64,000 nucleotides of DNA from Treponemataceae bacterium (GTDB taxonomy: Bacteria; Spirochaetota; Spirochaetia; Treponematales; Rectinemataceae). Under the pieces are notes generated by a model, which saw only the letters and a list, made by a program, of their open reading frames with translations, did not search any database and had not been told where the DNA came from. The stretch lies in contig CAXXVZ010000005.1 in the NCBI GenBank assembly GCA_963678065.2, forward strand, positions 832,001 to 896,000, read 5' to 3'. Both the position numbers and the translations under genes were made by a program. Positions 1-15,019 of the stretch are shown piece by piece. Each line of letters starts with the position of its first letter. Positions within the stretch are counted from its first letter, which is position 1.

Positions 1-1
1 C

Positions 2-61
2 ATATGTAAAATTTTTAGGTCGAGCGAGAAATCGCTTCACAAGCTTTTCATCTTTGCTCAT
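2..61 (-). CDS. HicA-like toxin, 5' part only (runs off window start)
   Basis: MSKDEKLVKRFLARPKNFTY resembles a HicA-family N-terminus; gcaact/agttgc palindrome upstream (92-110). Confidence 0.5.
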   Translation of the reverse strand, partial: MSKDEKLVKRFLARPKNFTY

Positions 62-139
62 ATAGCAATGTACCATAAATTCAGGAGAATAGCAACTATT
101 TTTCAGTTGCATACATCGTATTCTCTCGCGCCTTATTTC

Positions 140-278
140 GCCTAACGTTCTGCCTGTTTGCGACGATGGCGCGAGCATCGGCGAGCGCCATTGTGCCTGA
201 GCGGAATGAGCGCATGCGAGTGCAGCGATGGCCGAAGAGGGAGCCTGCGACCGATGAGCGTGAACAGCGCTGTTAGTT
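140..278 (-). repeat. attC site, variant A (29 copies; found only with the ORF-less mini-cassette)
   Basis: gcctAAC gttctgc ctgtttgcg ... cgtgaacag cgct GTTagtt; internal atggcgc/gcgccat stem. Confidence 0.88.
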
Positions 279-403
279 GCAGTCGTGACCTTCGAGCGCG
301 CTTGGATGGGGAGACTTGTCTCTCCATCCAATACTCTATCTTGCGCGCGTTCTTCTCTTCCTCTTTTCTTACCCTTATTTTTTCTTTCACGATTGCAACT
401 AAC
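272..403. repeat. ORF-less mini-cassette type I (~132 bp; 30 copies)
   Basis: gttagttgcagtcgtga...tcacgattgcaactaac. Copies start near 272,529,1962,2220,2477,19616,23771,26433,32116,32372,32631,34961,38537,40586,41788,42044,43010,43268,45438,48245,49166,49687,55890,56147,56404,58658,58917,60145,61485,61744. Confidence 0.92.
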
Positions 404-655
404 GTTCTGCCTGTTTGCGACGATGGCGCGAGCATCGGCGAGCGCCATTGTGCCTGAGCGGAATGAGCGATAGCGAGTGCAGCGATGGCCGAAGAGGGAG
501 CCTGCGACCGATGAGCGTGAACAGCGCTGTTAGTTGCAGTCGTGACCTTCAAGCGCGCTTGGATGGGGAGACTTGTCTCCTCATCCAATACTATATCTTG
601 CGCGCGTTCTTCTCTTTCTCTTTTCTTAACCCTTATTTTTCTCTTTCACGATTGC

Positions 656-797
656 AACTAACGTTCGCCTGCCTACGACGTTGTGGCGAGCATCGGCGAG
701 CCACAATGTGCCTGAGCGGAATGAGCGTCAGCGAGTGCAGCGATGGCCGAAGAAGGAGCCGAAAGGCGACTGATGAGCGTGGGCAGTGCTGTTAGCC
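656..797 (-). repeat. attC site, variant B (commonest with gene cassettes)
   Basis: taAC gttcgc ctgcctacg ... cgtgggcag tgct GTTag; internal ttgtggc/gccacaa stem. Confidence 0.88.
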
Positions 798-831
798 GCT
801 GCCACCTTCGTGTCATCCCAATACTATGTAC

Positions 832-860
832 TTGCTTATAGCAAGCTTTATGTGTATCAT
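832..860 (+). promoter_or_regulatory. Sigma70 promoter of the MarR-GNAT cassette with overlapping operator-like palindrome
   Basis: TTGCTT-17bp-TATCAT; cttgct-tat-agcaag inverted repeat at 831-845; ATG at 869. Confidence 0.6.
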
Positions 861-868
861 TCGTCTAT

Positions 869-1303
869 ATGAGTAGTATCAATGCGGTAAAAGACGTCAG
901 AACATTTAACCGTTTCTATACCAACATCATTGGCGTTATTGACCGTCATATCCTCGATAGTCCGTATTCATTGACTGAAGCAAGAATTCTCTATGAAATC
1001 TATAATAACCATACTATGACAGCTCGAAAAATAAAGAAGTATCTCCACATTGATGAAGGTTATCTGAGTCATGCACTAGAAAAAATGATCAAGAATGGCT
1101 TACTCATACGACAAAAATCCAAAGATGATAGAAGACTCAATCTCTTATCCTTAACTCAGAAGGGTGAAACTGAGTTTTTAGCACTAAGTTTGCGTTCTGA
1201 ACATGCAATTGCATCCCTTATCAAAGATCTGACCGGTAATGAACTAGAAAGGCTCACAGCTGCAATGCGGGAAATTACGTTTTTACTCACCAAAGAGGGG
1301 TAA
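869..1303 (+). CDS. MarR-family transcriptional regulator
   Basis: VRTFNRFYTNIIG, SLTEARILYEI, DDRR..LSLTQKG motifs. Confidence 0.88.
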   Translation: MSSINAVKDVRTFNRFYTNIIGVIDRHILDSPYSLTEARILYEIYNNHTMTARKIKKYLHIDEGYLSHALEKMIKNGLLIRQKSKDDRRLNLLSLTQKGETEFLALSLRSEHAIASLIKDLTGNELERLTAAMREITFLLTKEG

Positions 1304-1307
1304 TCTT

Positions 1308-1805
1308 ATGGTAACACTGGATGATATCACGATTCGAAATGAATTAGTGCCCGGCGACATTGGTTATATAATCTATCTGCATGGACTGCTGTATAGTACA
1401 GAAAATGCTTATGGACTTCAATTTGAAGCATATGTAACCGAAGGTTTGTTAGAATTTGTAAAAAGATACGATCCCTCTATAGATCGTGTATGGGTATGTG
1501 AACACAATACCCATATTGTAGGATTTATTTTGCTCATGCATCGCGATAACAATGCAGCTCAACTACGCTATTTCCTTATCCATCCGCAGTATCGGGGTAT
1601 TGGCTTAGGGAAAAGGCTTATTGAGTTGTATATGCAATTCTTACATCACTGTAACTACAGTACATCATATCTTTGGACAACCACTGAGCAGAAAACCGCT
1701 ATATCCTTATATAGGAGATATGGATTTTGTTTAACCGAGGAAAAAAAGTCATCGTTATTCGGGAAACCTTTACGTGAACAACGTTTTGACTTGGTTATTC
1801 GGTAG
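1308..1805 (+). CDS. GNAT acetyltransferase
   Basis: PGDIGYIIYLHG and AQLRYFLIHPQYRGIGLGKRL motifs. Confidence 0.9.
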   Translation: MVTLDDITIRNELVPGDIGYIIYLHGLLYSTENAYGLQFEAYVTEGLLEFVKRYDPSIDRVWVCEHNTHIVGFILLMHRDNNAAQLRYFLIHPQYRGIGLGKRLIELYMQFLHHCNYSTSYLWTTTEQKTAISLYRRYGFCLTEEKKSSLFGKPLREQRFDLVIR

Positions 1806-2735
1806 AGTTTGGGGGCTCGAAGGTGGTTGCGGCTAACGTTCTGCCTGTTTGCGACGATGGCGCGAGCATCGGCGAGCGCCATTGTGCCTGAGCGGAATGA
1901 GCAGAGCGAGTGCAGCGATGGCCGAAGAGGGAGCTTGCGACCGATGAGCGTGAACAGCGCTGTTAGTTGCAGTCGTGACCTTCGAGCGCGCTTGGATGGG
2001 GAGACTTGTCTCTCCATCCAATACTCTATCTTGCGCGCGTTCTTCTCTTCTTCTTCTCTTACCCTTATTTTTTTCTTTCACGATTGCAACTAACGTTCTG
2101 CCTGTTTGCGACGATGGCGTGAGCATCGGCGAACGCCATTGTGCCTGAGCGGAATGAGCGAATGCGAGTGTAGCGATGGCCGAAGAGGGAGCCTGCGACC
2201 GATGAGCGTGAACAGCGCTGTTAGTTGCAGTCGTGACCTTCGAGCGCGCTTGGATGGGGAGACTTGTCTCCTCATCCAATACTATATCTTGCGCGCGTTC
2301 TTCTCTTCCTCTTCTCTTACCCTTATTTTTTTCTTTCACGATTGCAACTAACGTTCTGCCTGTTTGCGACGATGGCGTGAGCATCGGCGAACGCCATTGT
2401 GCCTGAGCGGAATGAGCAAAGCGAGTGTAGCGATGGCCGAAGAGGGAGCTTGCGACCGATGAGCGTGAACAGCGCTGTTAGTTGCAGTCGTGACCTTCGA
2501 GCGCGCTTGGATGGGGAGACTTGTCTCCTCATCCAATACTCTATCTTGCGCGCGTTCTTCTCTTCCTCTTCTCTTACCCTTATTTTTTCTTTCACGATTG
2601 CAACTAACGTTTGCCTGCCTACGACGTTGTGGCGAGCATCGGCGAGCCACAATGTGCCTGAGCAGAATGAGCGACAGCGAGTGCAGCGATGGCCGAAGAA
2701 GGAGCTGAAGGCGACTGATGAGCGTGGGCAGTGCT

Positions 2736-3348
2736 GTTATGTGCTGTGTTTTTGGGGCACACCCTGTTTCTTCTCTTCATTTCTATAATTCTTATTCCTT
2801 TACTCTTAACCCTTTATCTTTGCATTTTAATACTTTATTCAGATACATACGCACTTTATTTCTCTATACCATAGTTATTTATTTACTTTGACAGTGCCTC
2901 TTTTCTTATATCCTACTACCTATATATTTTATCCTTAAATTCATATTTACGTTTTCGACTATTATAGTTCAGTACATGTTTTTCGATGTTTCCAATTCAA
3001 AAATCTACCATTTTTACTCATAAACCATATAGTAATAATGCCACTACTCAATATGTTTCTATACTTCAAAAATCACATTTTTTAGATTCAAATAGTTCAT
3101 GAGAAAAACAGCAGCATCTTCGAAAGGCGTTTTGAAATCTATGATAATCCTATACCCAGAAATCCTATTTTTTATCTATACCATTTTTGTACTGCATATA
3201 CTACCAACACTGAATATAGCACTGATCCACAATTACTACAGAATTGTGTATAAACCCAATATCAGAAGATTCTATTTTTGAATGCTCTGACGTCATTCAG
3301 AATCATATAGTTTCGCACGAGATCCGCCCCAAAAACATTGCACATAAC
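2736..3348. other. Long ORF-less cassette (family L)
   Basis: AT-rich, no credible ORF; homologous to 9517-10141 and 54266-54896. Confidence 0.75.
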
Positions 3349-3687
3349 GTTTGCCTGCCTACGACGTTGTGGCGAGCATCGGCGAGCCACAATGTGCCTG
3401 AGCGGAACGAGCGCATGCGAGTGCAGCAATTGGAAATGGCAAGTAGTTTTCCCCACCATATGGCAACTAGGAATCCCCACCCGGTAGAGGGTTATTCCTC
3501 CTTCTTTGCAGAGATGCGATATGACTCCCCTGACAGGGAGAAAATCTTTGCGTGATGCATGAGACGATCCAACAGGGCTGCGGTCATAACCTCGTCGCCC
3601 ATGAGTTCTGACCAAGAGTTCAGGTCCTTGTTGCTCGTCACGACGATAGAGGCACGTTCATAGAGATCCGAGACGAAGGTGAAAAAG

Positions 3688-4961
3688 GGCTCTTCGCTGT
3701 TTCATGTGGGTAACTGCCCCAGTTTACCGGCGACAATGTAGGTCATGATCTTGAGATTTTTGATAGTTCGGAATCCTCTGGCTCTGGTCTTTGCTGACTG
3801 AATCAGACTATTCAACGATTCAAGAAGCCCATTTGTCACTCCGGATGTAAGCCACCGAACGACTCCATTCCAGTGTCGTTTGAGCATCGCAGCAAAATTG
3901 ATGATTGGGGTAAGCTGTGATCGTGTTGCCCATACTCTCCATTTTTTAAGTTCTTCTATGGCTCGAGAAGCCGAGAATTCGAAAAGTCCCTTGAAAATGT
4001 TCATCATTCGCCATGCTCGCCCTGTTTTTAACTGTAATCCTGACAAGGTGTTGAGACGGGCCAAATTCTTAACCGACAGATTGTAGGGGTTGCTCAACCA
4101 GACATATTTCGAACCTCTGAGTACCGTTTCCATCGTTGATTCTTCTTTCCGCACGTCGTTGACTGCTTCACCCAGAAGCTTCATGACATGAAACCGATCA
4201 AACGTGAGAGCAGCCTGGGGAAGATGCTCTTCGATCCCGGACATGAACGCCGGCGACATATCGGTACAGACCGTCCGTGATAGCAGTTTTCGAGCCTCCA
4301 TGGGCTTCCAGATGCTCTGTAAAGGCTTTTATAGTGGATGCATCCTTGCCTTCGGTCACATATATGGCTTTCCCTGTATCGAGATCGGCCACAACGGTGA
4401 TGTATGAGTGTCCGCGTTTGGCTGCTGTTTCGTCGATTCCGATTCGTGTGGTTTTCGATAAATCTTGTGTAGCCACGTCTTCGGAAACATAATGGTCCAT
4501 AATTCGCCACACTCGCGTATCGGTGGTAGCTGTCAGTCTGGAAACTGCCTTGACGCTCATTTCCTTGACCATGATCATCATGAGGGCTTCGTACAGCAGG
4601 GTAAATCCCGATCCTTTACGCGCCCACGGGATATCAATCAGATGAACGCCATGCTCAGGACAGTCTATCCGCGGAACTCGTGCATGCAGATAGGCTTCAT
4701 GCTGGAAAAAATTGAGGTGACGCCATGTTTTGGGCATCGTATCGTAGGCTGTACCCTTGTAATCGCAGGAAAAACACGGAAAACGACTCCCGGGCTTGAA
4801 CCCAAGCTGTATATCAAGCCGATGTTCTGTTGGTTTGAACTCTATGTTCTCAACAATCCAGGGTTCAGATAATCCAAGCGCAAGGGCGAATAGTTCTACG
4901 TCTTTCATGCTGCTCATCCTACCATGCTTCCTTGGTTACCCACACGATTCGTTGAAGAGCC
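3688..4961 (-). mobile_element. ISL3-family IS
   Basis: GGCTCTTC ends; 8-bp target duplication tgaaaaag at 3680-3687 and 4962-4969. Confidence 0.92.
3702..4917 (-). pseudogene. ISL3 transposase, frameshifted
   Basis: WRHLNFFQHEAYLHARVPR, IGIDET, DMSPAF, FDRFHV, TNGLLESLNS motifs split over two frames; one extra C at ~4271. Confidence 0.85.
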
Positions 4962-5510
4962 TGAAAAAGAGATTGGCTTCCTTGCGCTCGATAGGAGTGT
5001 AGCCAATCTCATCAATGATCATGAGGTTGGCCTTCGCGAGCCGGCTTAGCCTGAACTGAGCGCTGCGTGCGGCGTCAGAGCGCACGAGGAGCTTCACCAG
5101 TGAGGTCATGCGCTCGTAACAAACCGAATAGCCTTTGCGTACGGCCACATGGCCAAGAGCGATTGCGAGATGGGTCTTTCCGAGTCCAGGAGGCCCGAAG
5201 AGCAGAAGGTTCTCGTGACGGTCTATCCAAGAGCACTCGGTGAGCTCAGAGAGGTCTCGTTTTCCAATTCCTGCTACTCGGCCGAGTTTGAAATCCTCGA
5301 GGCGCTTTACGACGGGAAAATGGGCCATGGCGAGGCCTCGTTTGAGGCGCCTGTCGCCGCGATCCTGTAGTTCGACGTCCACGAGGGTCTCGAGGAAGGC
5401 AAGGCATGTCAGTCCCCCGCTTTCAGCTTGTTTAAGAAGCTCAGGAAGCCGTGACGACGCGCCACGAAGCCGCAGGGACTCCAGTTTACGAGCGGATTCT
5501 GCGAGGGCGC

Positions 5511-7058
5511 TCATTCTTCGTGCCTCTGCGTATCGACGAGCGCGTCGAGGAATCGCTGATACTCGCTGACCGAGCGTGTGGCAACTAGTGGAAGGTCTCT
5601 GGTTTGATGAAGGCCGCGGTACGGCGAAGGCGCCACTGCGGGCACTGGCGTCGTGCTGTTGACCGCGTCGATGAGATCCTGGGCGCTTGCAAGTCCTCTA
5701 TCCAGGCAGAACTTCAATGCAAGCACGAGTTTCTCTCTGTCGATGTTGCGCTTGAGAAGCTTCCGAAGTCGGCCAGCGTGCTCCCGGAAGTAGCGTCGAT
5801 ACTCGGTATAGATACCATCGACGAAGCTCCCCCACTCGGGAAGATCATCTACTGCGGCGACAAGATCCGCGCGGAGCGTTTCCTGGGATCCTTCGCGATC
5901 GCGATAGTGAGCCTTGTCCAGCACCGTTCCGCCGGGTGTTGCCGCTTCGCGATGCGCCGCGATCTGGATACCCGTCTTCGTATCGAATACCAGGATGAGT
6001 CCGTCCTTGCGCTCGATAGTGACCTCGTTGAGCCGGTACGAGTTCGGCACCGAGTACCTGGTCGCGGCGATCGATATAAGGCTTTTCTGATCCACGTTAC
6101 GGCTCTCTCGGCAGCCCGATGCGGTGTCCGCGCGGAAAATAGACGCTCGGAGCGCCCGCAAGACGGGTTTCTCGTGCGCTTCGAAGTCCGCGAGCGGCAT
6201 GAGACGCGTGGCTTGGCTCAGTTTTGCGTTCACTCGTAAGAGCCATTTGCGCATGCCTGCCTGGAGTTCGTCGAAGGTCGCGAAGCTGCGGCTCGAGAAA
6301 TAGCTCGTTTTGACGTATTTGACCGCATTCTCGACCTTTCCTTTCGATTCCGGATCGGCCGCACGGCAGACACGGAGCCGCAGTCCCTGTTCTGCGACGA
6401 ACTCAGCAAAGGCTTTTGTCGTCGTGAGGTCGCCAAGGTTTTCCGTCACAATCATTGTCCGGTCCTGATCCATGACGAGTTCTTCGGTGATACCGCCAAA
6501 AAACTCGAAGGCGTCCAGGAGATGGCCGATCACATCCTCGCTGGTAAAGGGCCTGGATTGGGCCGCTACGTAGCGGTAACGGCTTCGTGAGAGTACTACG
6601 ACAACAAACCAAGCCTTTCCGATGTTCGTCGTCTCTACGCCGAAATCAATCTGAGCCTGCTTGCCGTAGGCCAGAGGCTCCACAGGACGATATTCCCGAC
6701 ACAGGCCCACCTTAATCGCACCGGATGCCTTGAGATACGTCAGGTAGTTCCGCAACGTACGGTCCGAGCCTGGAAGCTCTCCGTATTTCTCGCTTAAGTA
6801 GTCGTGGACGGACGATGAGTAGACCATTCTGCCTTCGTGGTTCTTTTTAAAAATCTCGAGGATTTCGTCCTTGTAGACCGAAAAAGCCTTACCGCGTTCT
6901 GCCATTCGCTCGAGATACCGTAAGAATTGGTCATTGTCCATGCGCAGGTACTTTCTCACGGTCTTGCGGTCCTTGCCAAGTTTTACCGCTAGTGCGCTGA
7001 CTGTGAGTCCTTGCCTGTGCCCTGTTCGTACGATGTTGTAGTCCTTCATGGTACTCAT
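5511..7058 (-). CDS. istA: IS21 transposase IstA
   Basis: HTH N-terminus, QAQIDFG, PESKGKVENAVKYVK, RYSVP motifs; overlaps istB start. Confidence 0.92.
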   Translation of the reverse strand: MSTMKDYNIVRTGHRQGLTVSALAVKLGKDRKTVRKYLRMDNDQFLRYLERMAERGKAFSVYKDEILEIFKKNHEGRMVYSSSVHDYLSEKYGELPGSDRTLRNYLTYLKASGAIKVGLCREYRPVEPLAYGKQAQIDFGVETTNIGKAWFVVVVLSRSRYRYVAAQSRPFTSEDVIGHLLDAFEFFGGITEELVMDQDRTMIVTENLGDLTTTKAFAEFVAEQGLRLRVCRAADPESKGKVENAVKYVKTSYFSSRSFATFDELQAGMRKWLLRVNAKLSQATRLMPLADFEAHEKPVLRALRASIFRADTASGCRESRNVDQKSLISIAATRYSVPNSYRLNEVTIERKDGLILVFDTKTGIQIAAHREAATPGGTVLDKAHYRDREGSQETLRADLVAAVDDLPEWGSFVDGIYTEYRRYFREHAGRLRKLLKRNIDREKLVLALKFCLDRGLASAQDLIDAVNSTTPVPAVAPSPYRGLHQTRDLPLVATRSVSEYQRFLDALVDTQRHEE

Positions 7059-7390
7059 TTCTTGTGCCGCATGCTCGCAAGCATAGCGGCCAAGGCCCCT
7101 GTGGGTGGGGAATCCTATTTGCCAACTGCTGGGGAATTCAGTTTACCATTTCCAGAGCGTATGCGAGTGCAATGAAGGCCGAAGAAGGAGCCGAAGGCGA
7201 CTGATGAGCGTGGGCAGTGCTGTTAGGCGACGTGTTGTTTTGCGTTTCTTCAAAATACACAATTACGTTGATACAGTTGTCAGATGTATTTTATCTACTG
7301 CTTTGCTGTTACCTAAAAATGGGGACTATATCATAAATGATTTCCTACTGATGTTTTAGTCTAATCAATGCTTGAAGTCATCTAAACATA

Positions 7391-7912
7391 CTATGCTGTA
7401 CAATAAGCTTCTTTTATTGACCTAATAGTTTTTAGTGCCCAGTCATAATGGCTGGATGTTGCTGATACTAGATATGCACCTAACGATGTTGTTCCTGTCC
7501 ATGCGTACTTTTTTTTAGTAAATAATTCATCATCACTATGTTTTTGTATTATTTCTATCATTTCTTTATGACTTTTCTTTATTAGCTTTATTGCTTCATT
7601 TAATTCTGTTCCTTTATACTTTTCATAAATTCTATGATTTAGGACAGGCAAGGTTTGCCAGGTAACATCTTCTGCCGGAATAGCTGGCTTCTTGCCGGAC
7701 ATTCCAATTTTATACCAATTCTTCATCATCGAATGCCATTCATGTAAATGACAAATCACATCAGCTATTGTCTTATCTCTATCATTGAGTTCATTATTTT
7801 CGTATGATTTAACTTGATATTCTTTGGGTAGCGATTCAATGAACACTAATAGTTTTGTAAGGTTTTCATCGCCAAGCGACAGTAGCTCTGCTTTGTTGGT
7901 TGGTCTAGGCAT
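7391..7912 (-). CDS. ClbS/DfsB-family (DUF1706) four-helix-bundle protein, copy 1
   Basis: MPRPTNKAELL, RDKTIADVICHLHEWH, TGTTSLGAYLVSATSSHYDWA. Confidence 0.8.
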   Translation of the reverse strand: MPRPTNKAELLSLGDENLTKLLVFIESLPKEYQVKSYENNELNDRDKTIADVICHLHEWHSMMKNWYKIGMSGKKPAIPAEDVTWQTLPVLNHRIYEKYKGTELNEAIKLIKKSHKEMIEIIQKHSDDELFTKKKYAWTGTTSLGAYLVSATSSHYDWALKTIRSIKEAYCTA

Positions 7913-8202
7913 GTAATTCTCCTAAATTAATTCGCGCCAAAGGCGTCCTGTTAACAGCATTTACCGTGATACATATAAACCTATTTGTATAAGTGGTAAA
8001 ACACTAAAATGGTAATCTCTGGAAGGATCGCGCAAAACAATATGTCGCCTAACGTTCGCCTGCCTACGACGTTGTGGCGAGCATCGGCGAGCCACAATGT
8101 GCCTGAATGGAACGAGCGTATGCGAGTGGAGTGAAGGCCGAAGAAGGAGCCGAAGGCGACTGATGAGCGTGGGCAGTGCTGTTAGGTGAAGTTGTTCAGG
8201 CA

Positions 8203-9072
8203 CTATCTCCCGTAATACTCAATTACTTCTCTCGCCCTTCTTGTAATGAACTCATTTTTATCTGTATTTCCGATTGATATTACCAAATCTTTAATCTGAC
8301 GCTCTATTTCCCACGTCGAATCTGGTTTCATTTTGCTTCTTAATAGATCCAACGCTTTCGTAATATGTACCGATTCCACCTTTTCCCGTTTCAAAAGCCA
8401 GAGTATTTCCAGATAATCTCCTTGATACATATTCGGAAATGTAAGCTTTTTTATAGTGGTATGGATAAACGATGTACTATCATGCGAACTGAAGCAAACA
8501 TCATGCAGTAAAATAAAGGCTATACACTGAGCACGTAGCTTTTTAGCATTTTCTGATCGTTTGTTCTCAGGAATAAAGGATAATCCCTTCAAGAGCTTCA
8601 CAATTCCCCAATAACAGGTATGTTTTCCATAGCAACTACGATTCGAACAATACGGAAAGGAAGAAGGAGTCTTGAAATCCCCATCATCAAATCGTTGGTA
8701 GTCTGCAAAAAAGTCTATGATGCTTGTAATAACAGATTCATTTTCAAAATGAAAATATGAATGCACATACAGCATATTCCCATTCAAGCACGGAATTGGG
8801 AAATGAGTTTTCCCCAAAGAGTAAATATTCACGGTTCGATCGAGAAAATGATTTGCTATCGTCTGCAAAGGTCTGATTAGGCTAGTTATTCTATAATCGC
8901 AGTGCATATCAGCTAACAGGATGAGCGTCCATAAGGTGGATTTATAATTGGGTACGTAATAATTCAACGCTGGGTAATGCGTATCCCTTTTATCCAGAAC
9001 GTTCCAACATCCATTTTCATCCTGCAATTCAAGTATCTTTGACGTAAGTGATTGTGCTAAATCTGTAGTCAT
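8203..9072 (-). CDS. Hypothetical protein, prenyltransferase/squalene-cyclase-like repeat fold
   Basis: QDENGCW, PNYKSTLWTL, PCLNGN, LTFPNMYQGDYLEIL; 289-aa ORF fills the cassette. Confidence 0.6.
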   Translation of the reverse strand: MTTDLAQSLTSKILELQDENGCWNVLDKRDTHYPALNYYVPNYKSTLWTLILLADMHCDYRITSLIRPLQTIANHFLDRTVNIYSLGKTHFPIPCLNGNMLYVHSYFHFENESVITSIIDFFADYQRFDDGDFKTPSSFPYCSNRSCYGKHTCYWGIVKLLKGLSFIPENKRSENAKKLRAQCIAFILLHDVCFSSHDSTSFIHTTIKKLTFPNMYQGDYLEILWLLKREKVESVHITKALDLLRSKMKPDSTWEIERQIKDLVISIGNTDKNEFITRRAREVIEYYGR

Positions 9073-9117
9073 ACTGATTTCCCACTAAACGAGTGTGTGG
9101 TGTGCCTGAACAATTTC

Positions 9118-9258
9118 ACCTAACGTATGCCTGCCTGCGACGTTTTGGCCCGCATCGGCGGGACAAAATGTGCTTGAGCGGAACGAGCGAATGCGAGTGA
9201 AGTGAAAGCCGAAGAAGGAGCCGAAGGCGACTGATGAGCGGGGGCAGCGCTGTTATGT
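9118..9258 (-). repeat. attC site, variant D
   Basis: Same frame as other attCs; internal ttttggcc cgcatcggcg ggacaaaa stem. Confidence 0.85.
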
Positions 9259-9389
9259 GCTGTCGCGATCTTGGTTTAGCGCACTGAAAGGTGGTGGCTG
9301 GATGCCACCACTTTTCAAGAAATATCCTGTGCGCGTTCTTTCTTTATCTTCTCTTCACTTTAGATACATTCCTCGCGATTGCACATAAC
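9252..9389. other. ORF-less mini-cassette type II, copy 1
   Basis: 138 bp, nested inverted repeats, near-identical copy at 49425-49562. Confidence 0.8.
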
Positions 9390-9516
9390 GTTCGCCTGCC
9401 TACGACGTTGTGGCGAGCATCGGCGAGCCGCAATGTGCCTGAATGAAACGAGCGAATGCGAGTGAAATGAAGGCCGAAGAAGGAGCCACAGGCGACTGAT
9501 GAGCGTGGGCAGTGCT

Positions 9517-10141
9517 GTTATGTGCTGTGTTTTTGGGGCACACCCTGTGTCTTTTCTTCATTTCTATTATTCTTATTCCTTTACTCCTTACCCTTTTTCT
9601 TTGCAGTTTATTACTTTATTCAGATTCATACATGTTTTATTCCTCTATACCATAGCTAGTTTTATTTTTGGCAGTATCTCTTTTCTTATATCCTAATACC
9701 TGTTTACTTCCCCCCTTACTTTATCTATGTTTTTTTACTATCATTTTTTAACACACTTTTTAATAGATAGTTCCAATTCCAGAATCCACTGTTTTTACTC
9801 ATAAAAAATACAGTACATATTCCCACTACTCAATATTTTCTATACTTCAAAAATCACTTTTTGGGATTCACCTATTTCATGGCACATATCTCATGAGAAA
9901 AATTGCAGCACCTTAGAAAGATGTTTTGAACTTTATGATAATCCATATTCAAAAATCGTATTTTTTATTTATACCATTTTTGTATTGCACATACCAATAA
10001 CACTGAATATAGCACTGATCCACAATTACTACAGGATTGTTCATAAACCCAGTATCAGGAGATCCTATTTTTGAATACTCTGACGTCATTCAGAATCATA
10101 CAGTTCAGTAAGAGATCCGCCCCAAAAACATTGCACATAAC
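9517..10141. other. Long ORF-less cassette (family L)
   Basis: Same ends and colinear homology with 2736-3348. Confidence 0.75.
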
Positions 10142-10294
10142 GTTCGCCTGCCTACGACGTTGTGGCGAGCATCGGCGAGCCACAATGTGCCTGAGCGGAA
10201 TGAGCGAATGCGAGTGGAGTGAAGGCCGAAGAAGGAGCCACAGGCGACTGATGAGCGTGGGCAGTGCTGTTAGGCGATGTTCCAGCGCGATCTT

Positions 10295-10570
10295 CTATTC
10301 AATTTTGATCAATAATTTCTTCCCAAATACTTCTGCTACTTTCTCCAAGGTCGATAACCGAATATCTTCTGCATGATTTTCCATCCGAGATATGACACTT
10401 TTCTTTGTCTGTAATCGTGTTGCCAATTCTTCCTGGGTCATTCCTTCATTTTTCCTGAGTTCTTTAAGCATGATTCCTATCTTAAATTCCTCATATCCTT
10501 TCTCATATCCTATGCCAAATTCCGGATCTTTCTTTTTCCTGTTTTCAATATAGACAGATAAATCACTCAT
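10295..10570 (-). CDS. XRE/HTH antitoxin (HigA-like)
   Basis: [16 protein letters not shown]...VISRMEN; ATGA overlap with the toxin. Confidence 0.85.
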
Positions 10571-11109
10571 TTTTTTACCCTCGTAAAATACTCTGTACGA
10601 TATTTTTCTGCCCTTTGGATCTCATCTCGTGGTGTTTTCTGAGTCTTTTTACCAAACCCATTAGTCAGAACAACTAGATTTCCAGAATCCATAAAGCACA
10701 ATATCCTATATGCCATCCGACCTACATCGATTCGACATTCCCATAGTTCATCAGTTCCCGATAGTTTCTTGAAATACTGAATCGGAACTCTGTCCATTTC
10801 TTCTACAATCCGTAATACCCAGGTTATCTTTTGTAATTCTTTACCTGATACAGAATCAAAAAACTCTTCTATGGGACATCGTCCTTCCTGATTTCCCGGA
10901 AAATTGTAGCTATGAATAAATATGTCTATATTATAAATAGAAATGATTCACCATCCGAGAGCGTTGCATAGCTGTATTTGTAGCTATACTTCTTGCCCAT
11001 GAAAATATGTAACTTCTATTTGGATATGAAGTTACCAATTCCCTAGTTACAATGCGCCGGGAAATCAAGGTCCTTCGGAAGTCCTATAGAAGATTATTGT
11101 TCTCTTCAT
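10567..11109 (-). pseudogene. RelE/HigB (Gp49-like) toxin interrupted by a MITE
   Basis: MKRTIIFYRTSEG | RCPIEEFFDS...LWECRI...GFGKKTQKTP rejoins in frame when 10887-11075 is removed. Confidence 0.85.
10887..11069. mobile_element. 183-bp non-autonomous element (MITE), IS1634-like ends
   Basis: IRs cctgatttcccgg..attgtagcta / tagttacaat..ccgggaaatcaag; 6-bp duplication gtcctt at 10881-10886 and 11070-11075. Confidence 0.85.
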
Positions 11110-11115
11110 GTATAC

Positions 11116-11144
11116 ATGTTAGCACATATGCTAACTACCGTCAA
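11116..11144 (-). promoter_or_regulatory. TA promoter with operator palindrome
   Basis: TTGACG-17-TAACAT; gttagca-cata-tgctaac at 11118-11135; ATG 6 nt after -10. Confidence 0.6.
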
Positions 11145-11330
11145 GTTTCTTTTCTCCTCTTCGCGCTGGAATTTCGCCTAACGTTTTGTGCCTACGACGT
11201 TTCGGACCGCATCGGCGGGCCGAAATGTGCCTGAGTGAAGTGAGCGCATGCGAGCGGAACGATGGCCGAGGAGCCATGAAATGGCGACGAGCAGGGGCAC
11301 GGTGTTAGGCGATGTGTGTGCGCGACTGTC

Positions 11331-11729
11331 TTACCAAATTACTTTTAGTCCATCTTCTTCATATTTTTTAAAATTTTCATCTTTACTTATTATTCCCATC
11401 TTTCTATGAAGTGCTTGCCATATCAACATTCGATCAAATGGATCTTTATGATCCTCATAATAACTCAATTCATTATATGTACTGGATTCATCTTCATCCA
11501 AAGTAATTATTGAACCCAATTGTTTCGCATATTTTGGTAAATCCTTGATCTCTATTCCTTCCAAGGTATATCGGTGCATTCGAACTTTTATCGCTATTTC
11601 CCAAAATGAAATAGTGCTGATATAGATTCCAGTATCTTTATTTTTAAGTATATCAGATACTCTTTTACTTAACTTATCAGAATCCAATATAGACCAAATA
11701 AATGTATGTGTATCAAGTAAATACATCAT
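11331..11729 (-). CDS. vapC: PIN-domain toxin (VapC-like)
   Basis: YLLDTHTFIW, STISFWEIAIK, HKDPFDRMLIWQA. Confidence 0.9.
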   Translation of the reverse strand: MMYLLDTHTFIWSILDSDKLSKRVSDILKNKDTGIYISTISFWEIAIKVRMHRYTLEGIEIKDLPKYAKQLGSIITLDEDESSTYNELSYYEDHKDPFDRMLIWQALHRKMGIISKDENFKKYEEDGLKVIW

Positions 11730-11732
11730 ATT

Positions 11733-11960
11733 TTATCCCAAAAACTCTTCAACAGTAATTTTCCCATCTCCCATGATGGAAAATGATGCTTTCCCATTGA
11801 GCATACCTATTTTTCGTTGTTTTTTTTCTTCATTCGGTACAAGCATTGCGATAGGTTTTTTTGCTTTCCCATACAGTATCCTAACTTTTTCTCCATGCTT
11901 TACGAGTTCAAGGAGTTCAGAAAAGTGGCTCTTGAATTCTCCAACCGTCATCTCATTCAT
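11733..11960 (-). CDS. Phd/YefM-family antitoxin
   Basis: MNEMTVGEFKSHFSELLELVKHGEKVRI. Confidence 0.85.
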   Translation of the reverse strand: MNEMTVGEFKSHFSELLELVKHGEKVRILYGKAKKPIAMLVPNEEKKQRKIGMLNGKASFSIMGDGKITVEEFLG

Positions 11961-11966
11961 ATCCCA

Positions 11967-11995
11967 AGTATACGTTATTCTTTTCAAGTTGTCAA
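11967..11995 (-). promoter_or_regulatory. Sigma70 promoter, leaderless arrangement
   Basis: TTGACA-17-TATACT, 6 nt before ATG at 11960. Confidence 0.7.
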
Positions 11996-12226
11996 CTATA
12001 TCTCGCGCACACATTTCGCCTAACGTTCGCCTGCCTACGACGTTGTGGCGAGCATCGGCGAGCCACAATGTGCCTGAGCGCAATGAGCGTTAGCGAGTGC
12101 AGCGATGGCCGAAGAAGGAGCCGCAGGCGACTGATGAGCGTGGGCAGTGCTGTTAGCTGATGGTTTGCCCCCCATCCATGTCTTTTCTCTCTTCACCTTA
12201 TTCATTGTTTTTCAATATCTTATACC

Positions 12227-12736
12227 TTATATCTTTATCCAATAATAACAATGTTCATGTTCTATCTTTTCCAATATCCCATTATTCCATTCTATTACTT
12301 TTCTTGATCCTCTGTTGGTTTCATCACAGGTTATCAATACATCATTCACATCACGTTTCTTTATTTCGTTCAATGTCAGTTCCAATAACTTCTTCCCATA
12401 CCCCTTATTTCGTTGTTCTTTCCGAATCCCATATCCTATATGCCCACCATGAGCACGCAATTTATCGGTTAAGTAATGCCTCATTTTTGAGTACCCTAGT
12501 ACTTCTTCATCATCCATAAGCCAATATATTGTTTGTGGCACATATCCTTTTTCAAGCTCAGGAGCTTCATACTGCGCAATAAGTTTTTCGATATATCCCG
12601 GATACTCTTCCCATGAGATCCCATATCCACCATTCATAAATCCATTTTCTTCTTGATCAATCGATTGTAGCATCTGATAAATGTTTCTATTCGTTGTATC
12701 ACGTTCAGAAACCTTCTGAAGATAAATCCTACCCAT
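12227..12736 (-). CDS. GNAT acetyltransferase, copy 1
   Basis: GGHIGYGIRKEQRNKGYGK, LITCDETNRGSRKVIE. Confidence 0.9.
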   Translation of the reverse strand: MGRIYLQKVSERDTTNRNIYQMLQSIDQEENGFMNGGYGISWEEYPGYIEKLIAQYEAPELEKGYVPQTIYWLMDDEEVLGYSKMRHYLTDKLRAHGGHIGYGIRKEQRNKGYGKKLLELTLNEIKKRDVNDVLITCDETNRGSRKVIEWNNGILEKIEHEHCYYWIKI

Positions 12737-13087
12737 AATAATTCCTTAAAAGAACAATACTGTATCACACAATCAAATAGTGCAAAACATATGTAAATTC
12801 ACCATCCAAAGTCTCAAGCCGACACTACATTTGATACAGTTTGAAAATATTGATATCGGCATATCGGATCTCGGGGGGCAAACTTTCAGCTAACGTTTCC
12901 GGCCTGCGACGTTTGCGACCGCATCGGCGGGCGCAAATGTGCCTGAACGGAATGAGCGACTGCGAGTGGAGTGAAGGCCGAAGAAGGAGCCGCAGGCGAC
13001 TGATGAGCGTGGGCCGTGTTGTTAGGTGACGTTTTAGAGGCGAATTTAGAGAAGGCGCGCCGTCGGCCGGAGGTCCGGCGCGCTAAA

Positions 13088-13945
13088 CTATCTTGAAGTA
13101 GCATTAACCATATTCCTAATCTCATCTACAGTATAATTTGGCTTTTTACTATGAATTATTGCATGACAATTTGGGCATAACGGAATTAGATCCTTCACCG
13201 GATCTATACTATGAGCTTTATCAGTCCCTGCAATAGCTACAATATGATGAACATGGATTATTTCAGTAATACTTATTCCATATGCGCTTTTTGAATCAAA
13301 TCCGCAGATTGCACACTTAGCTCCATAGTATTCAAGGCACTTATCTCTTGCAGCTCGATTCCTTCCATAGTCATTAATTTGCCTTATTTCCCTATACCCC
13401 TCAATATATCGAAGTTCGATTTCTCCAATATCATTAGCATTTTTCACATCCTGCCTTTCAGAATATTTACTTTTTGCATAATCTATTAAGCCCTGAAAAT
13501 TGCTTTTCTTGAATATTGCTGAAAAAGGCTTTCCGCCCTTTGTTATCGCAACTTTATCAACAAAGCCTTTGTGATAAGGCCAAAGTGTTTCACTTACTTT
13601 ATCAAACTCAGTGTAATCACCACAGAATGCGCATTGATCAACTTGGACAGTTTTATAATGACTTTCTTCATATTCGGAGCCAATAAAGGGTCCCTTACCA
13701 TATTTTCCAATACAATTTAGCCTTACAAAGTCTTCGCCTACAATATAAACTTCAACCCTTCCAACATTTAAGCGGAATATATTGCTATATAGAGTTACAC
13801 TCCAAACTTGGCCAGCTATTTCTTCAACATAGGCAATTGTCTTGAGCAGTTGAGATAATACAATTCGCTCTTGTTCAGGGCTAGTTATAAATCCAGACAA
13901 TATCAATGCAGCATCTGAAGAATCATTTGGATCAATTTCTTTCAT
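13088..13945 (-). CDS. HNH endonuclease (McrA-like C-terminus)
   Basis: CAICGFD...IHVHHI...DLIPLCPNCHAIIH. Confidence 0.85.
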   Translation of the reverse strand: MKEIDPNDSSDAALILSGFITSPEQERIVLSQLLKTIAYVEEIAGQVWSVTLYSNIFRLNVGRVEVYIVGEDFVRLNCIGKYGKGPFIGSEYEESHYKTVQVDQCAFCGDYTEFDKVSETLWPYHKGFVDKVAITKGGKPFSAIFKKSNFQGLIDYAKSKYSERQDVKNANDIGEIELRYIEGYREIRQINDYGRNRAARDKCLEYYGAKCAICGFDSKSAYGISITEIIHVHHIVAIAGTDKAHSIDPVKDLIPLCPNCHAIIHSKKPNYTVDEIRNMVNATSR

Positions 13946-14227
13946 TTTCTTCCTTCTATTGCGCCCGACGGCCGGAGGCCCGGGCGCTCTTCAATTTTCG
14001 ACAGAGCCTCTAAAATGTCACCTAACGTTCGCCTGCCTACGACGTTGTGGCGAGCATCGGCGAGCCACAATGTGCCTGAGCGGAATGAGCGTATGCGAGT
14101 GCAGCGATGGCCGAAGAAGGAGCCGCAGGCGACTGATGAGCGTGGGCAGTGCTGTTAGACGAAGTTATTCCATTCTTACATCGATATACTTTTTTAATTA
14201 CTAGCGATACTTATCGTTGTAATATTT

Positions 14228-15019
14228 CTATATAGCATCTCTATCTTCAACAATTGCACTTTTTCCCAAAGAAAATATATCCAAATATCCAAGAATTGTA
14301 TAAATTGCGAATCTTCTGCGTTTTTCTATTATTACAAATATTGTCGTACACATTAATGCGATTATTAATAGCATCCACAAATAATTCATATAAGTATATT
14401 TTACTAAAAGTATACTTATCATCATTACTATTATTTGCAGATAATAGACTTCTCTTATTTCATCACGAAGTTGATCCCTTTTAACTTGTTCTTGTGTTAC
14501 AGAACTATAATAATCTGCATACTCAATATACCTTATTTCACTAAGTCCATCAATATGCTTTTCTATTCCTTCAATTTGTTTTTTTAAGGTATTCATTTTA
14601 CCCTTAGATTCTGGTTGCGCCCAACATTTCAGAGAGTAGTACTCATTTATACTTTTGCAATGATTTTTAAAATATCTTTTTGCTAATTCTGGTATTGGAA
14701 CAAATAACAATGCAATTACTTCTTTTTTAAAAAACACCTTACCTATTATTTTTTTAAATAAAATATAGACAAATGAGCCTATTGCAGTTGTTATTGTCTC
14801 TAGTAGGAATAGACCTAATGCACCAATTATTGCAATAAAAAAAATTATAAGAATACTTGGTGTCAAGCTGTTTATTATTTTGAAATCAATTTTTTTAATA
14901 CTTTCAATAAACATATTTATTAAATTACGATCATCAGCTAAAACTACACACAGTATAACAAATATTAATCCCAGAAACAGCCTAAGTAAAAAATTCCAGA
15001 ATCTAATAAATGCTTCCAT
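14228..15019 (-). CDS. Hypothetical membrane protein
   Basis: 263-aa ORF fills cassette; hydrophobic segments at both ends. Confidence 0.7.
   Translation of the reverse strand: MEAFIRFWNFLLRLFLGLIFVILCVVLADDRNLINMFIESIKKIDFKIINSLTPSILIIFFIAIIGALGLFLLETITTAIGSFVYILFKKIIGKVFFKKEVIALLFVPIPELAKRYFKNHCKSINEYYSLKCWAQPESKGKMNTLKKQIEGIEKHIDGLSEIRYIEYADYYSSVTQEQVKRDQLRDEIREVYYLQIIVMMISILLVKYTYMNYLWMLLIIALMCTTIFVIIEKRRRFAIYTILGYLDIFSLGKSAIVEDRDAI

Follow-up and report, generated by a model that had tools for sequence, protein, structure and literature searches.

Among the described systems, the Vibrio cholerae repeats (VCR) come closest to the repeats reported here. They are homogeneous attC sites of 120-140 nt in a large chromosomal array, with one site per cassette, and their purine-rich bottom strand folds into a hairpin with a YAAC/GTTR core and a G|TT crossover. 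The terminal structure of attC sites is called variable and largely dispensable, and its deletion from VCR is described as hardly changing recombination (Bouvier 2009, PMC2727003; PMC5371416; PMC6393395). The I2 domain of the integrase and the extrahelical bases of the site are held to be essential for recombination of single strands, and their origin has been called a chicken-and-egg paradox (Escudero 2016, PMC4792948). CTXphi and IMEX, which are recombined via XerCD, use a folded single strand without extrahelical bases and an enzyme without I2 (Escudero 2016, PMC4792948). Sedentary chromosomal integrons, including the co-oriented Treponema type, combine a tyrosine recombinase and an attI-like crossover, with the enzyme gene co-oriented (Wu 2013, PMC3607928; Ghaly 2022), with a long array of short genes, toxin-antitoxin pairs and ORF-less cassettes. 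Outside recombination, DNA mini-hairpins (GCGNAGC, GCGNNAGC) and hairpins with CGAG blocks are reported to be highly stable, to resist nucleases and to be weak binding partners of SSB (PMC13037366, PMC10085684).

The locus described here, a stretch of 64,000 nucleotides from a Treponemataceae bacterium (hereafter the window), shares with VCR the listed features of hairpin, core, crossover and array, and with sedentary integrons the listed features of enzyme and cassettes together with a putative attI-like crossover. However, its sites differ from VCR in three respects: they have no extrahelical G in the L box, their spacer is 4-5/1 and not about 6/5, and an outer stem of ~11 bp runs into a gap-free four-way junction with a conserved core and up to six tandem GA pairs. 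Unlike in sedentary integrons, the enzyme at the array head has no IntI insertion and lies outside the IntI clade in a quick tree, and it fails the published definition of IntI (PMC8352920, bioRxiv 2022.02.06.479319). The array resembles CTXphi and IMEX in its predicted folded strand and I2-less enzyme, but it has a dedicated enzyme beside it, hundreds of cassettes, a branched site and no dif target. The loops and the sheared-type context of the tandem G·A pairs are those of the mini-hairpins and CGAG-block hairpins, whereas here many such modules follow one another along the three junction arms of a recombination site. The literature searched, with most subscription journals and supplements, where such sites may be drawn, outside its scope, reports no four-way or tandem-GA attC fold and no I2-less arrays.

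The cassette array and the architecture of its sites

The window is the interior of a chromosomal cassette array, whose repeat of 127-138 nt was found by profile search in 178 copies on contig C5, all on the + strand. Within the window 78 intact copies lie between 143 and 63661 (+), and BLAST gave 80 matches, which are these 78 plus the two halves of one site split by an insertion sequence (IS); this agrees with the 79 sites counted in the initial annotation. A lone degenerate or partial copy lies outside the array (G000:C2:667428-667508). Long ORFs between the repeats are mostly on the - strand, 39 of 55 ORFs have a Pfam match, and the cargo is typical of cassettes, with GNAT acetyltransferases, PIN, ParE/Phd and HEPN-MNT pairs, HNH, TIR and Schlafen. 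At 869-1805 of the window a MarR and a GNAT gene lie on the + strand within one cassette, against the usual direction. Of the 163 cassettes measured, 52 do not exceed 300 bp, and most of these belong to an ORF-less family of ~257 bp, which often stands in tandem and also provides the first cassette at the array head. At the ends of this family the core is prolonged to form a long, imperfect inverted repeat; the family also has an internal hairpin and, on the top strand, a purine-rich tract. Joints in the sequencing runs were traced to the repeats, and no excision was seen.

Past GTTA, the two ends of a cassette agree for a further 4 nt in 159 of the 163 neighbouring pairs, compared with a mean of 28.5 and a maximum of 40 after shuffling, whereas the two ends of one site as it stands agree past GTTA in only 34 of 169. 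Because cassette ends match beyond GTTA in this way, the + strand is the bottom strand, as had been proposed, and the crossover is G|TT. The sites thus have R'' and R' cores that pair on the folded strand, a G|TT crossover and one site per cassette. The name attC used in the initial annotation fits the way the sites work, with their G|TT crossover, but neither their geometry, which is not the canonical one, nor the I2-less recombinase that accompanies them. An extrahelical G in the L'' box with a T 6-8 nt further on (Bouvier 2009) is found in none of the sites of the array, and instead of an unpaired spacer of ~5-6 nt on both arms most sites have 4-5 nt opposite 1 nt.

In all 169 intact sites the + strand reads as an outer stem of ~11 bp and three arms that meet without a single unpaired base, and the four pairs that close the junction are canonical in 169/169 (Table 1). 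These counts, like those below, come from a structure-blind alignment of the intact sites, with one IS-broken match dropped and eight partial sites excluded; it replaced regex parses that demanded GA and overlooked 20 and 24 of 170 sites. All elements annotated at 659-794, three hairpins and an outer stem, are present as described, and the point added here is their branch geometry, in which the arms abut without a free base. Since the closing pairs read from the sequence are G-C, A-T, G-C and C-G, branch migration would be impossible, and the predicted bottom-strand fold is a gap-free, immobile four-way junction. Covariation in stem and hairpins had been noted as well and was confirmed: among 14 hand-picked window variants 14 of 43 pairs changed on both sides and 98% of cells are paired, a score that is no probability, as the copies are related. 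None of 500 shuffles scored as high, and slid registers were 24-39% paired. The optional extra pyrimidine of the outer stem, 3 nt from the spacer, is absent in 19/169 sites. A T·G at the fourth outer-stem pair from the junction is present in 169/169 sites of this genome; it was rejected as a general determinant, as it is not kept in other genomes.

Table 1. Position of the array, its recombinase gene and selected features (window coordinates unless a contig is given; rows from R' to R'' describe the site at 659-794)
Feature	Position	Strand	Remarks
178-site array	G000:C5:754680-931444	+	from profile search
I2-less recombinase gene at the array head	C5:~931896-933077 (L005:1183-2364)	-	35 kb past the right end of the window
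ORF-less short cassette, example	276..658	-	~257 bp including its site
R' half of core	659..662	+	YAAC on bottom strand; crossover G|TT on top
Central spacer, 5' side	663..666	+	asymmetric, 4 nt opposite 1 nt at 790
Outer stem, 5' arm	667..677	+	11 nt; last base is the G of the junction G-C pair
Arm 1	678..709	+	junction pairs A-T, C-G, G·T; covarying 7-bp stem; tandem GA/GA; ATCG loop
Arm 2	710..747	+	GCC/GGC base; two invariant tandem GA/GA; GNA/GNA 3x3 loop; GNNA/GNAB apical loop
Arm 3	748..777	+	C-G junction pair; two GA/GA, optional third; GNA/GNNA or C(NN)G loop
Outer stem, 3' arm	778..790	+	optional extra pyrimidine at 787; 1-nt 3' spacer at 790
R'' half of core	791..794	+	GTTR
Site split by IS21-family element with nested ISL3	3345..7225	+	halves 3345-3430 and 7155-7225

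Elements with the same ends, of the IS21 family in the window copy, lie in four sites, always in the 3' half of arm 2 or at the start of arm 3, and another, different element is inserted in arm 3 of a site. The IS positions within sites are 3431-7154 of the window and 761854, 788044, 822898-825338 and 796680-799117 of G000:C5. The ISL3 nested in the window copy is absent from other strains. The two halves that flank the window copy belong to different site variants, which suggests a deletion between two IS copies.

Tandem GA pairs, loops and strand preference

The three arms are built from the same few non-canonical elements. The tandem of arm 1 is GA/GA in 128, CC/GG in 40 and different in one of the 169 sites, so that GA/GA, which was thought to be kept in hairpin 1 of variants C and D, is not kept there. 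Arm 2 has GA in both slots, on the 5' side in 169/169 sites and on the 3' side in 153/153 in the standard register, a count that sets aside 16 sites with a small insertion; the middle bases of its GNA/GNA 3x3 loop vary freely. In arm 3 the two basal GA/GA slots are kept in 169/169 and 167/169 sites, the single pair between them covaries between A-T and G-C (164/5), and a third slot is present in 151/169. The hairpin-3 slot quoted in the initial annotation is missing in 18/169 sites, and what was given there as its variants are sequences of a slot nearer the base of the arm. A constant GA register across variants can therefore be upheld for arm 2 and for the basal slots of arm 3, which are near-invariant, but not for arm 1 with its swap. 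Altogether there are three more tandem-GA slots than first described and, in addition, one GNA/GNA 3x3 loop. The 20 G/A tandem positions show 2 minor alleles in total, compared with 5 at the 2 middle positions that are free to vary and 14 at 22 positions in stems.

The apical loop of arm 2 is GNAB in 88, GNNA in 44, GNA in 2, ANA in 17 and another in 2 sites. It had been called hypervariable, but it is constrained, since all but two of the 134 loops of four bases (132) conform to GNNA or GNAB; where position 3 is not A, position 4 is A and vice versa, as these two types require (Fisher p 0.029, resting on 13 distinct loops in related copies). That only 10/134 four-base loops are of the GNRA type suggests DNA-type rather than RNA-type loops. 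The motifs cGNAg, cGNNAg, cGNABg and gCNNGc fit 134/153 loops of arm 2 and 131/151 of arm 3, whereas the loop of arm 1, ATCG or ACAG, fits none of them and is not the GNA-type loop it was taken for. The names cGNAg, cGNNAg and cGNABg for stable loops are those of Nakano 2002, and GNA loops, mini-hairpins and CGAG blocks are described as stable (PMC3201870, PMC13037366, PMC10085684). Three of the six GA slots have the pyrimidine-GA-purine context that is known to shear and two are purine-flanked; the basal slot of arm 2 is flanked by T·T in most sites.

A hairpin aligner without GA bonus, applied to 73 arms from 15 other genomes, identified GA/GA in 13 of the 17 loops of 2x2 type (9/304 in shuffles) and GNA/GNA in 5 of the 8 loops of 3x3 type (2/64 in shuffles); AG/AG or TC/TC was not seen among the 2x2 loops of these arms. 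This supports the original proposal of a selected, strand-specific fold of single-stranded DNA. It is nevertheless unlikely that the GA pairs themselves are the recognised feature, since they are swapped for Watson-Crick pairs in arm 1, arm lengths vary among genomes and the GA-GC-GNA-GC-GA module also occurs in canonical attC sites.

Standard DNA energies make the main variant no better than its shuffles (z -0.31), with -0.25 for variant B and -2.84 for variant C, and thus give variants A and B no excess stability. They charge each GA/GA with +1.2 to +1.9 kcal, and the full fold with arms 2 and 3 is not returned. The predicted fold therefore rests on covariation and not on energy. When both strands are folded, the purine-rich bottom strand is the more stable one in 143/143 distinct sites, in line with canonical attC sites, but of the mean gap of -5.6 kcal shuffles reproduce -3.4, so that 60% of it is compositional. 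Rfam has no match in window positions 1-15000 at E up to 1, and none at the gathering threshold for sites in eight other loci.

The I2-less recombinase and the distribution of the junction

Directly past the array head and co-oriented with the cassettes lies a gene for a tyrosine recombinase of 393 aa with an intact catalytic RKHRHY set (R248, K273, H337, R340, H363, Y372). The IntI-specific insertion, the I2 domain, is absent, with gaps of 31 and 10 residues against the IntI encoded on contig C3 of the same genome. The enzyme reaches 197.3 bits with TIGR02249 (cut-off 265), and 213.8 with the best model, NF040815 (cut-off 220). The first cassette starts with GTTAG ~300 bp past the recombinase gene at a putative attI-like crossover, and relatives show inverted-repeat cores there. 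In four of them (L023, L024, L025, L028) the attI-like sites, downstream of the recombinase, are dif-like, near-perfect inverted repeats with a spacer of 6 nt; the left half in the present genome (L005 ~858-875) is degenerate.

Among relatives with more than 45% identity, an attI-like crossover or cassette sites lie behind the enzyme in six of seven loci. In ten genomes that were chosen for having junction sites, and not drawn blind, an I2-less enzyme is encoded on the site-bearing contig in 10/10, and TIGR02249 is above cut-off in 0/10 (completeness 93-100%). The gene is divergent in seven of them, co-oriented in two and at the array tail in one; in this last case (L146, G027:C136) it is convergent with the cassettes and its stop lies ~40 bp from a site. 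In the quick tree the enzymes of junction arrays form two groups, both apart from IntI. For 80 more distant relatives, many of whose loci end near the recombinase gene and so limit the test, a crude repeat test flagged six loci, with clear cassette-type sites in L040 and L047 and probable ones in L070. These three belong to I2-less Bacteroidota relatives (L040 and L047 Flavobacteriaceae), which are followed by cassette arrays of another site design. By eye, the sites of the Flavobacteriaceae systems look unbranched at the place of the junction, which is thus not universal among I2-less systems.

The same genome also has a canonical integron on contig C3, with a co-oriented, intact IntI gene (L001, G000:C3:96956-98140; 450 bits). 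Its array has at least 11 canonical attC sites (L151/L152) with a 6/5 spacer and the extrahelical G. Several of them carry the same GA-GC-GNA-GC-GA module but are branched in other ways. As far as the searches of both arrays reach, C5 and C3 have no site type in common.

BLAST with a site matched 1/40 relatives. A pattern that combined the core with the junction words of arm 1 occurred in 27 of 400 other genomes of the phylum; of its 28 loci six were judged chance and one doubtful, and the reversed control pattern matches once or twice in many genomes. Out of 87 candidates from 20 other genomes, 60 parse as the same junction, 10 as another split and 17 not at all, by an anchored and hence partly circular parsing that was preferred to an automatic parser of four-way folds, which was run with shuffled controls, proved noisy and often gave other splits. 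Seven of the 17 are by eye the same junction misregistered by one base, and several are false candidates; true deviants are three sites of G027, with an arm 3 of only 4-5 nt, and three of G330 with another design. Arms in these genomes range from a GNA mini-hairpin of 9 nt to more than 70 nt, and a minimal arm 2 has a GNA loop in 29/29 cases, a loop that was outside the search pattern. Outer stems elsewhere are ~11 bp long, free in sequence at most positions, mostly unbulged (53/63 distinct) and followed by a 1-nt 3' spacer.

In metagenome and viral sequences, at least 123 distinct matches (128 + 4 stretches) were obtained with a pattern that fixed linear junction words only. Among the matches listed, the flip of arm 2 between GCC/GGC and GGC/GCC is compensated in 121/123, arm 1 has at least 7 consecutive pairs in 111/123, and the outer stem is found in 103/123 (the other 20 are truncated or have none), with arm 3 closing C-G directly against it in 101. 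These matches contain 73 different arm-1 and 58 different outer-stem sequences; positions 2-9 of the stem are Watson-Crick in 48-52 of 53 distinct stems, mostly with 3-4 pair types. The conservation of the junction words is partly built in, because these words belonged to the search patterns, and shared cassette ancestry could also preserve them. In the metagenome loci L178-L307 among the matches listed, the fifth stem pair counted from the junction is A-T in 50 and the sixth is T-A in 49 of the 53 distinct stems; this may be a binding motif, and the sites of the present genome lack it. Four recombinase genes, two of them truncated, are present in the 130 metagenome loci listed, and four viral contigs (L304-L307) among these matches have a site of the junction design. 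Plasmid searches gave no real match to the sites.

Proposed function and competing explanations

Taken together, these data argue for a real, selected architecture of single-stranded DNA and for a variant of the cassette site that is tied to a non-canonical recombinase, for which we propose a mechanism. With somewhat more confidence than doubt, we regard the repeats as sites of a sedentary integron-like array that is run by an I2-less recombinase and in which the conserved junction core is read as a signal. The bottom strand would fold whenever it becomes single-stranded, in replication, conjugation or repair, and would do so in two layers. In a generic layer, tandem G·A pairs, presumably sheared, GNA/GNA loops, G·T pairs and cGNAg, cGNNAg and cGNABg loops would stabilise the arms, and this on the bottom strand only, because TC/TC loops and A·C mismatches take their place in the complement; such modules could nucleate folding in vivo and resist SSB. 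In this respect the GA elements would extend the known effect of purine skew (PMC5027507) and the SSB model (PMC5737091). In a specific layer, the arms would lock into the immobile junction with its fixed core pairs. The distance between the junction and the 4-5/1 spacer, 11 bp or one helical turn, would put the junction at the outer border of the site occupied by the second recombinase monomer, which may contact it. As the enzyme beside the sites has no I2, the junction may be an alternative recognition signal: junction and lopsided spacer would take over from extrahelical bases and I2 and mark the polarity of the site, so that, as we propose, cleavage at the core is confined to one strand and cassette insertion to one orientation. 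We infer that they replace, in particular, the extrahelical bases which I2 reads to block the second cut. The GA pairs and loops, being swappable with Watson-Crick pairs, variable in number and common to canonical attC sites, would then stabilise the bottom strand in a generic way, and the junction core would be the conserved and probably recognised element.

The most serious alternative, which we consider rather unlikely, is that the GA-rich branched interior is an ordinary variable terminal structure that only aids folding, by favouring the recombinogenic stem and absorbing misfolding sequence. In that case no protein would read the junction, and its core words would be kept by descent or homogenisation. 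Precedents exist: the bottom strand is indirectly favoured when the terminal structure has a purine skew and G·T pairs (Nivina 2016, PMC5027507), GC-rich apical pairs hold attC partly folded against SSB (Grieb 2017, PMC5737091), and deletion of the VCR terminal structure had little effect (PMC2727003). The GA modules in the canonical attC sites of the same genome also speak for it, as does the fact that two enzyme clades with different N-terminal domains share the junction. However, a folding aid has no need of the geometry observed, in which the arms vary freely but the branch keeps its closing pairs, its lack of gaps and a fixed distance of 11 bp, and the canonical sites of this genome are branched in other ways. 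Improbable, in our view, is a narrower form of the preferred reading, in which a HARP-like N-terminal domain of the head enzyme reads the junction. This domain reaches 24.8 bits with Pfam PF07443 (cut-off 25), a profile of 13 N-termini matches SMARCAL1 HARP (4o66, E 0.0018), and its predicted model (pLDDT 86.6) aligns with the N-terminus of UvsW (Z 6.5, rmsd 3.5, 64 aligned), with XPB (Z 5.9) and with 4o66 (Z 4.3). Yet these Z scores are only moderate and are equalled by ACT-like domains, and a HARP-like extension is also present at the N-terminus of the canonical IntI of C3. When the first 110 residues were used to search for homologues, the query protein was the sole match. Moreover, six divergent enzymes beside the same junction sites have, by eye, an unrelated N-terminus, and because this enzyme group differs there, HARP is not the general reader.

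It is very unlikely that the IntI of C3 acts in trans on the repeats as on attC sites of an atypical kind, with the head recombinase as a bystander, although that IntI is intact, IntI enzymes accept diverse sites, and core and crossover are integron-like. As far as the searches reach, the two arrays share no site types; the repeats have neither an extrahelical G nor a real plasmid match, none of the ten other junction-site genomes examined has a canonical IntI, and attI-like crossovers and cassettes lie behind the genes for relatives of the head enzyme. We give hardly any weight to a fold that acts as RNA, be it a terminator, a stabiliser or an antisense transcript. RNA often contains tandem GA pairs, but the fold lies on the non-coding strand of most cassette genes, its loops are of the DNA type, Rfam has no match, and the stem is in fixed register with the crossover.

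The reading of the junction core as a signal has a wider form, which we put forward only tentatively and hold to be possible rather than probable, namely a second integron chemistry in which I2-less recombinases find both the identity and the polarity of a site in a four-way DNA junction of non-canonical pairs. An array of 178 cassettes without extrahelical bases or I2, whose branch geometry is fixed across many genomes, is a testable candidate for an alternative reading, and a minimal site of ~90 nt is usable for assays. The sites also provide a rule for finding arrays that IntI-based tools would label integrase-less, and a rare natural set of covarying structures of single-stranded DNA on which current energy models fail. 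If the wider form is true, the genome would run an orthogonal system alongside a classical integron and contain a selected natural tertiary motif of DNA, and such arrays would be a living answer to the question how cassettes were captured before the I2 domain arose.
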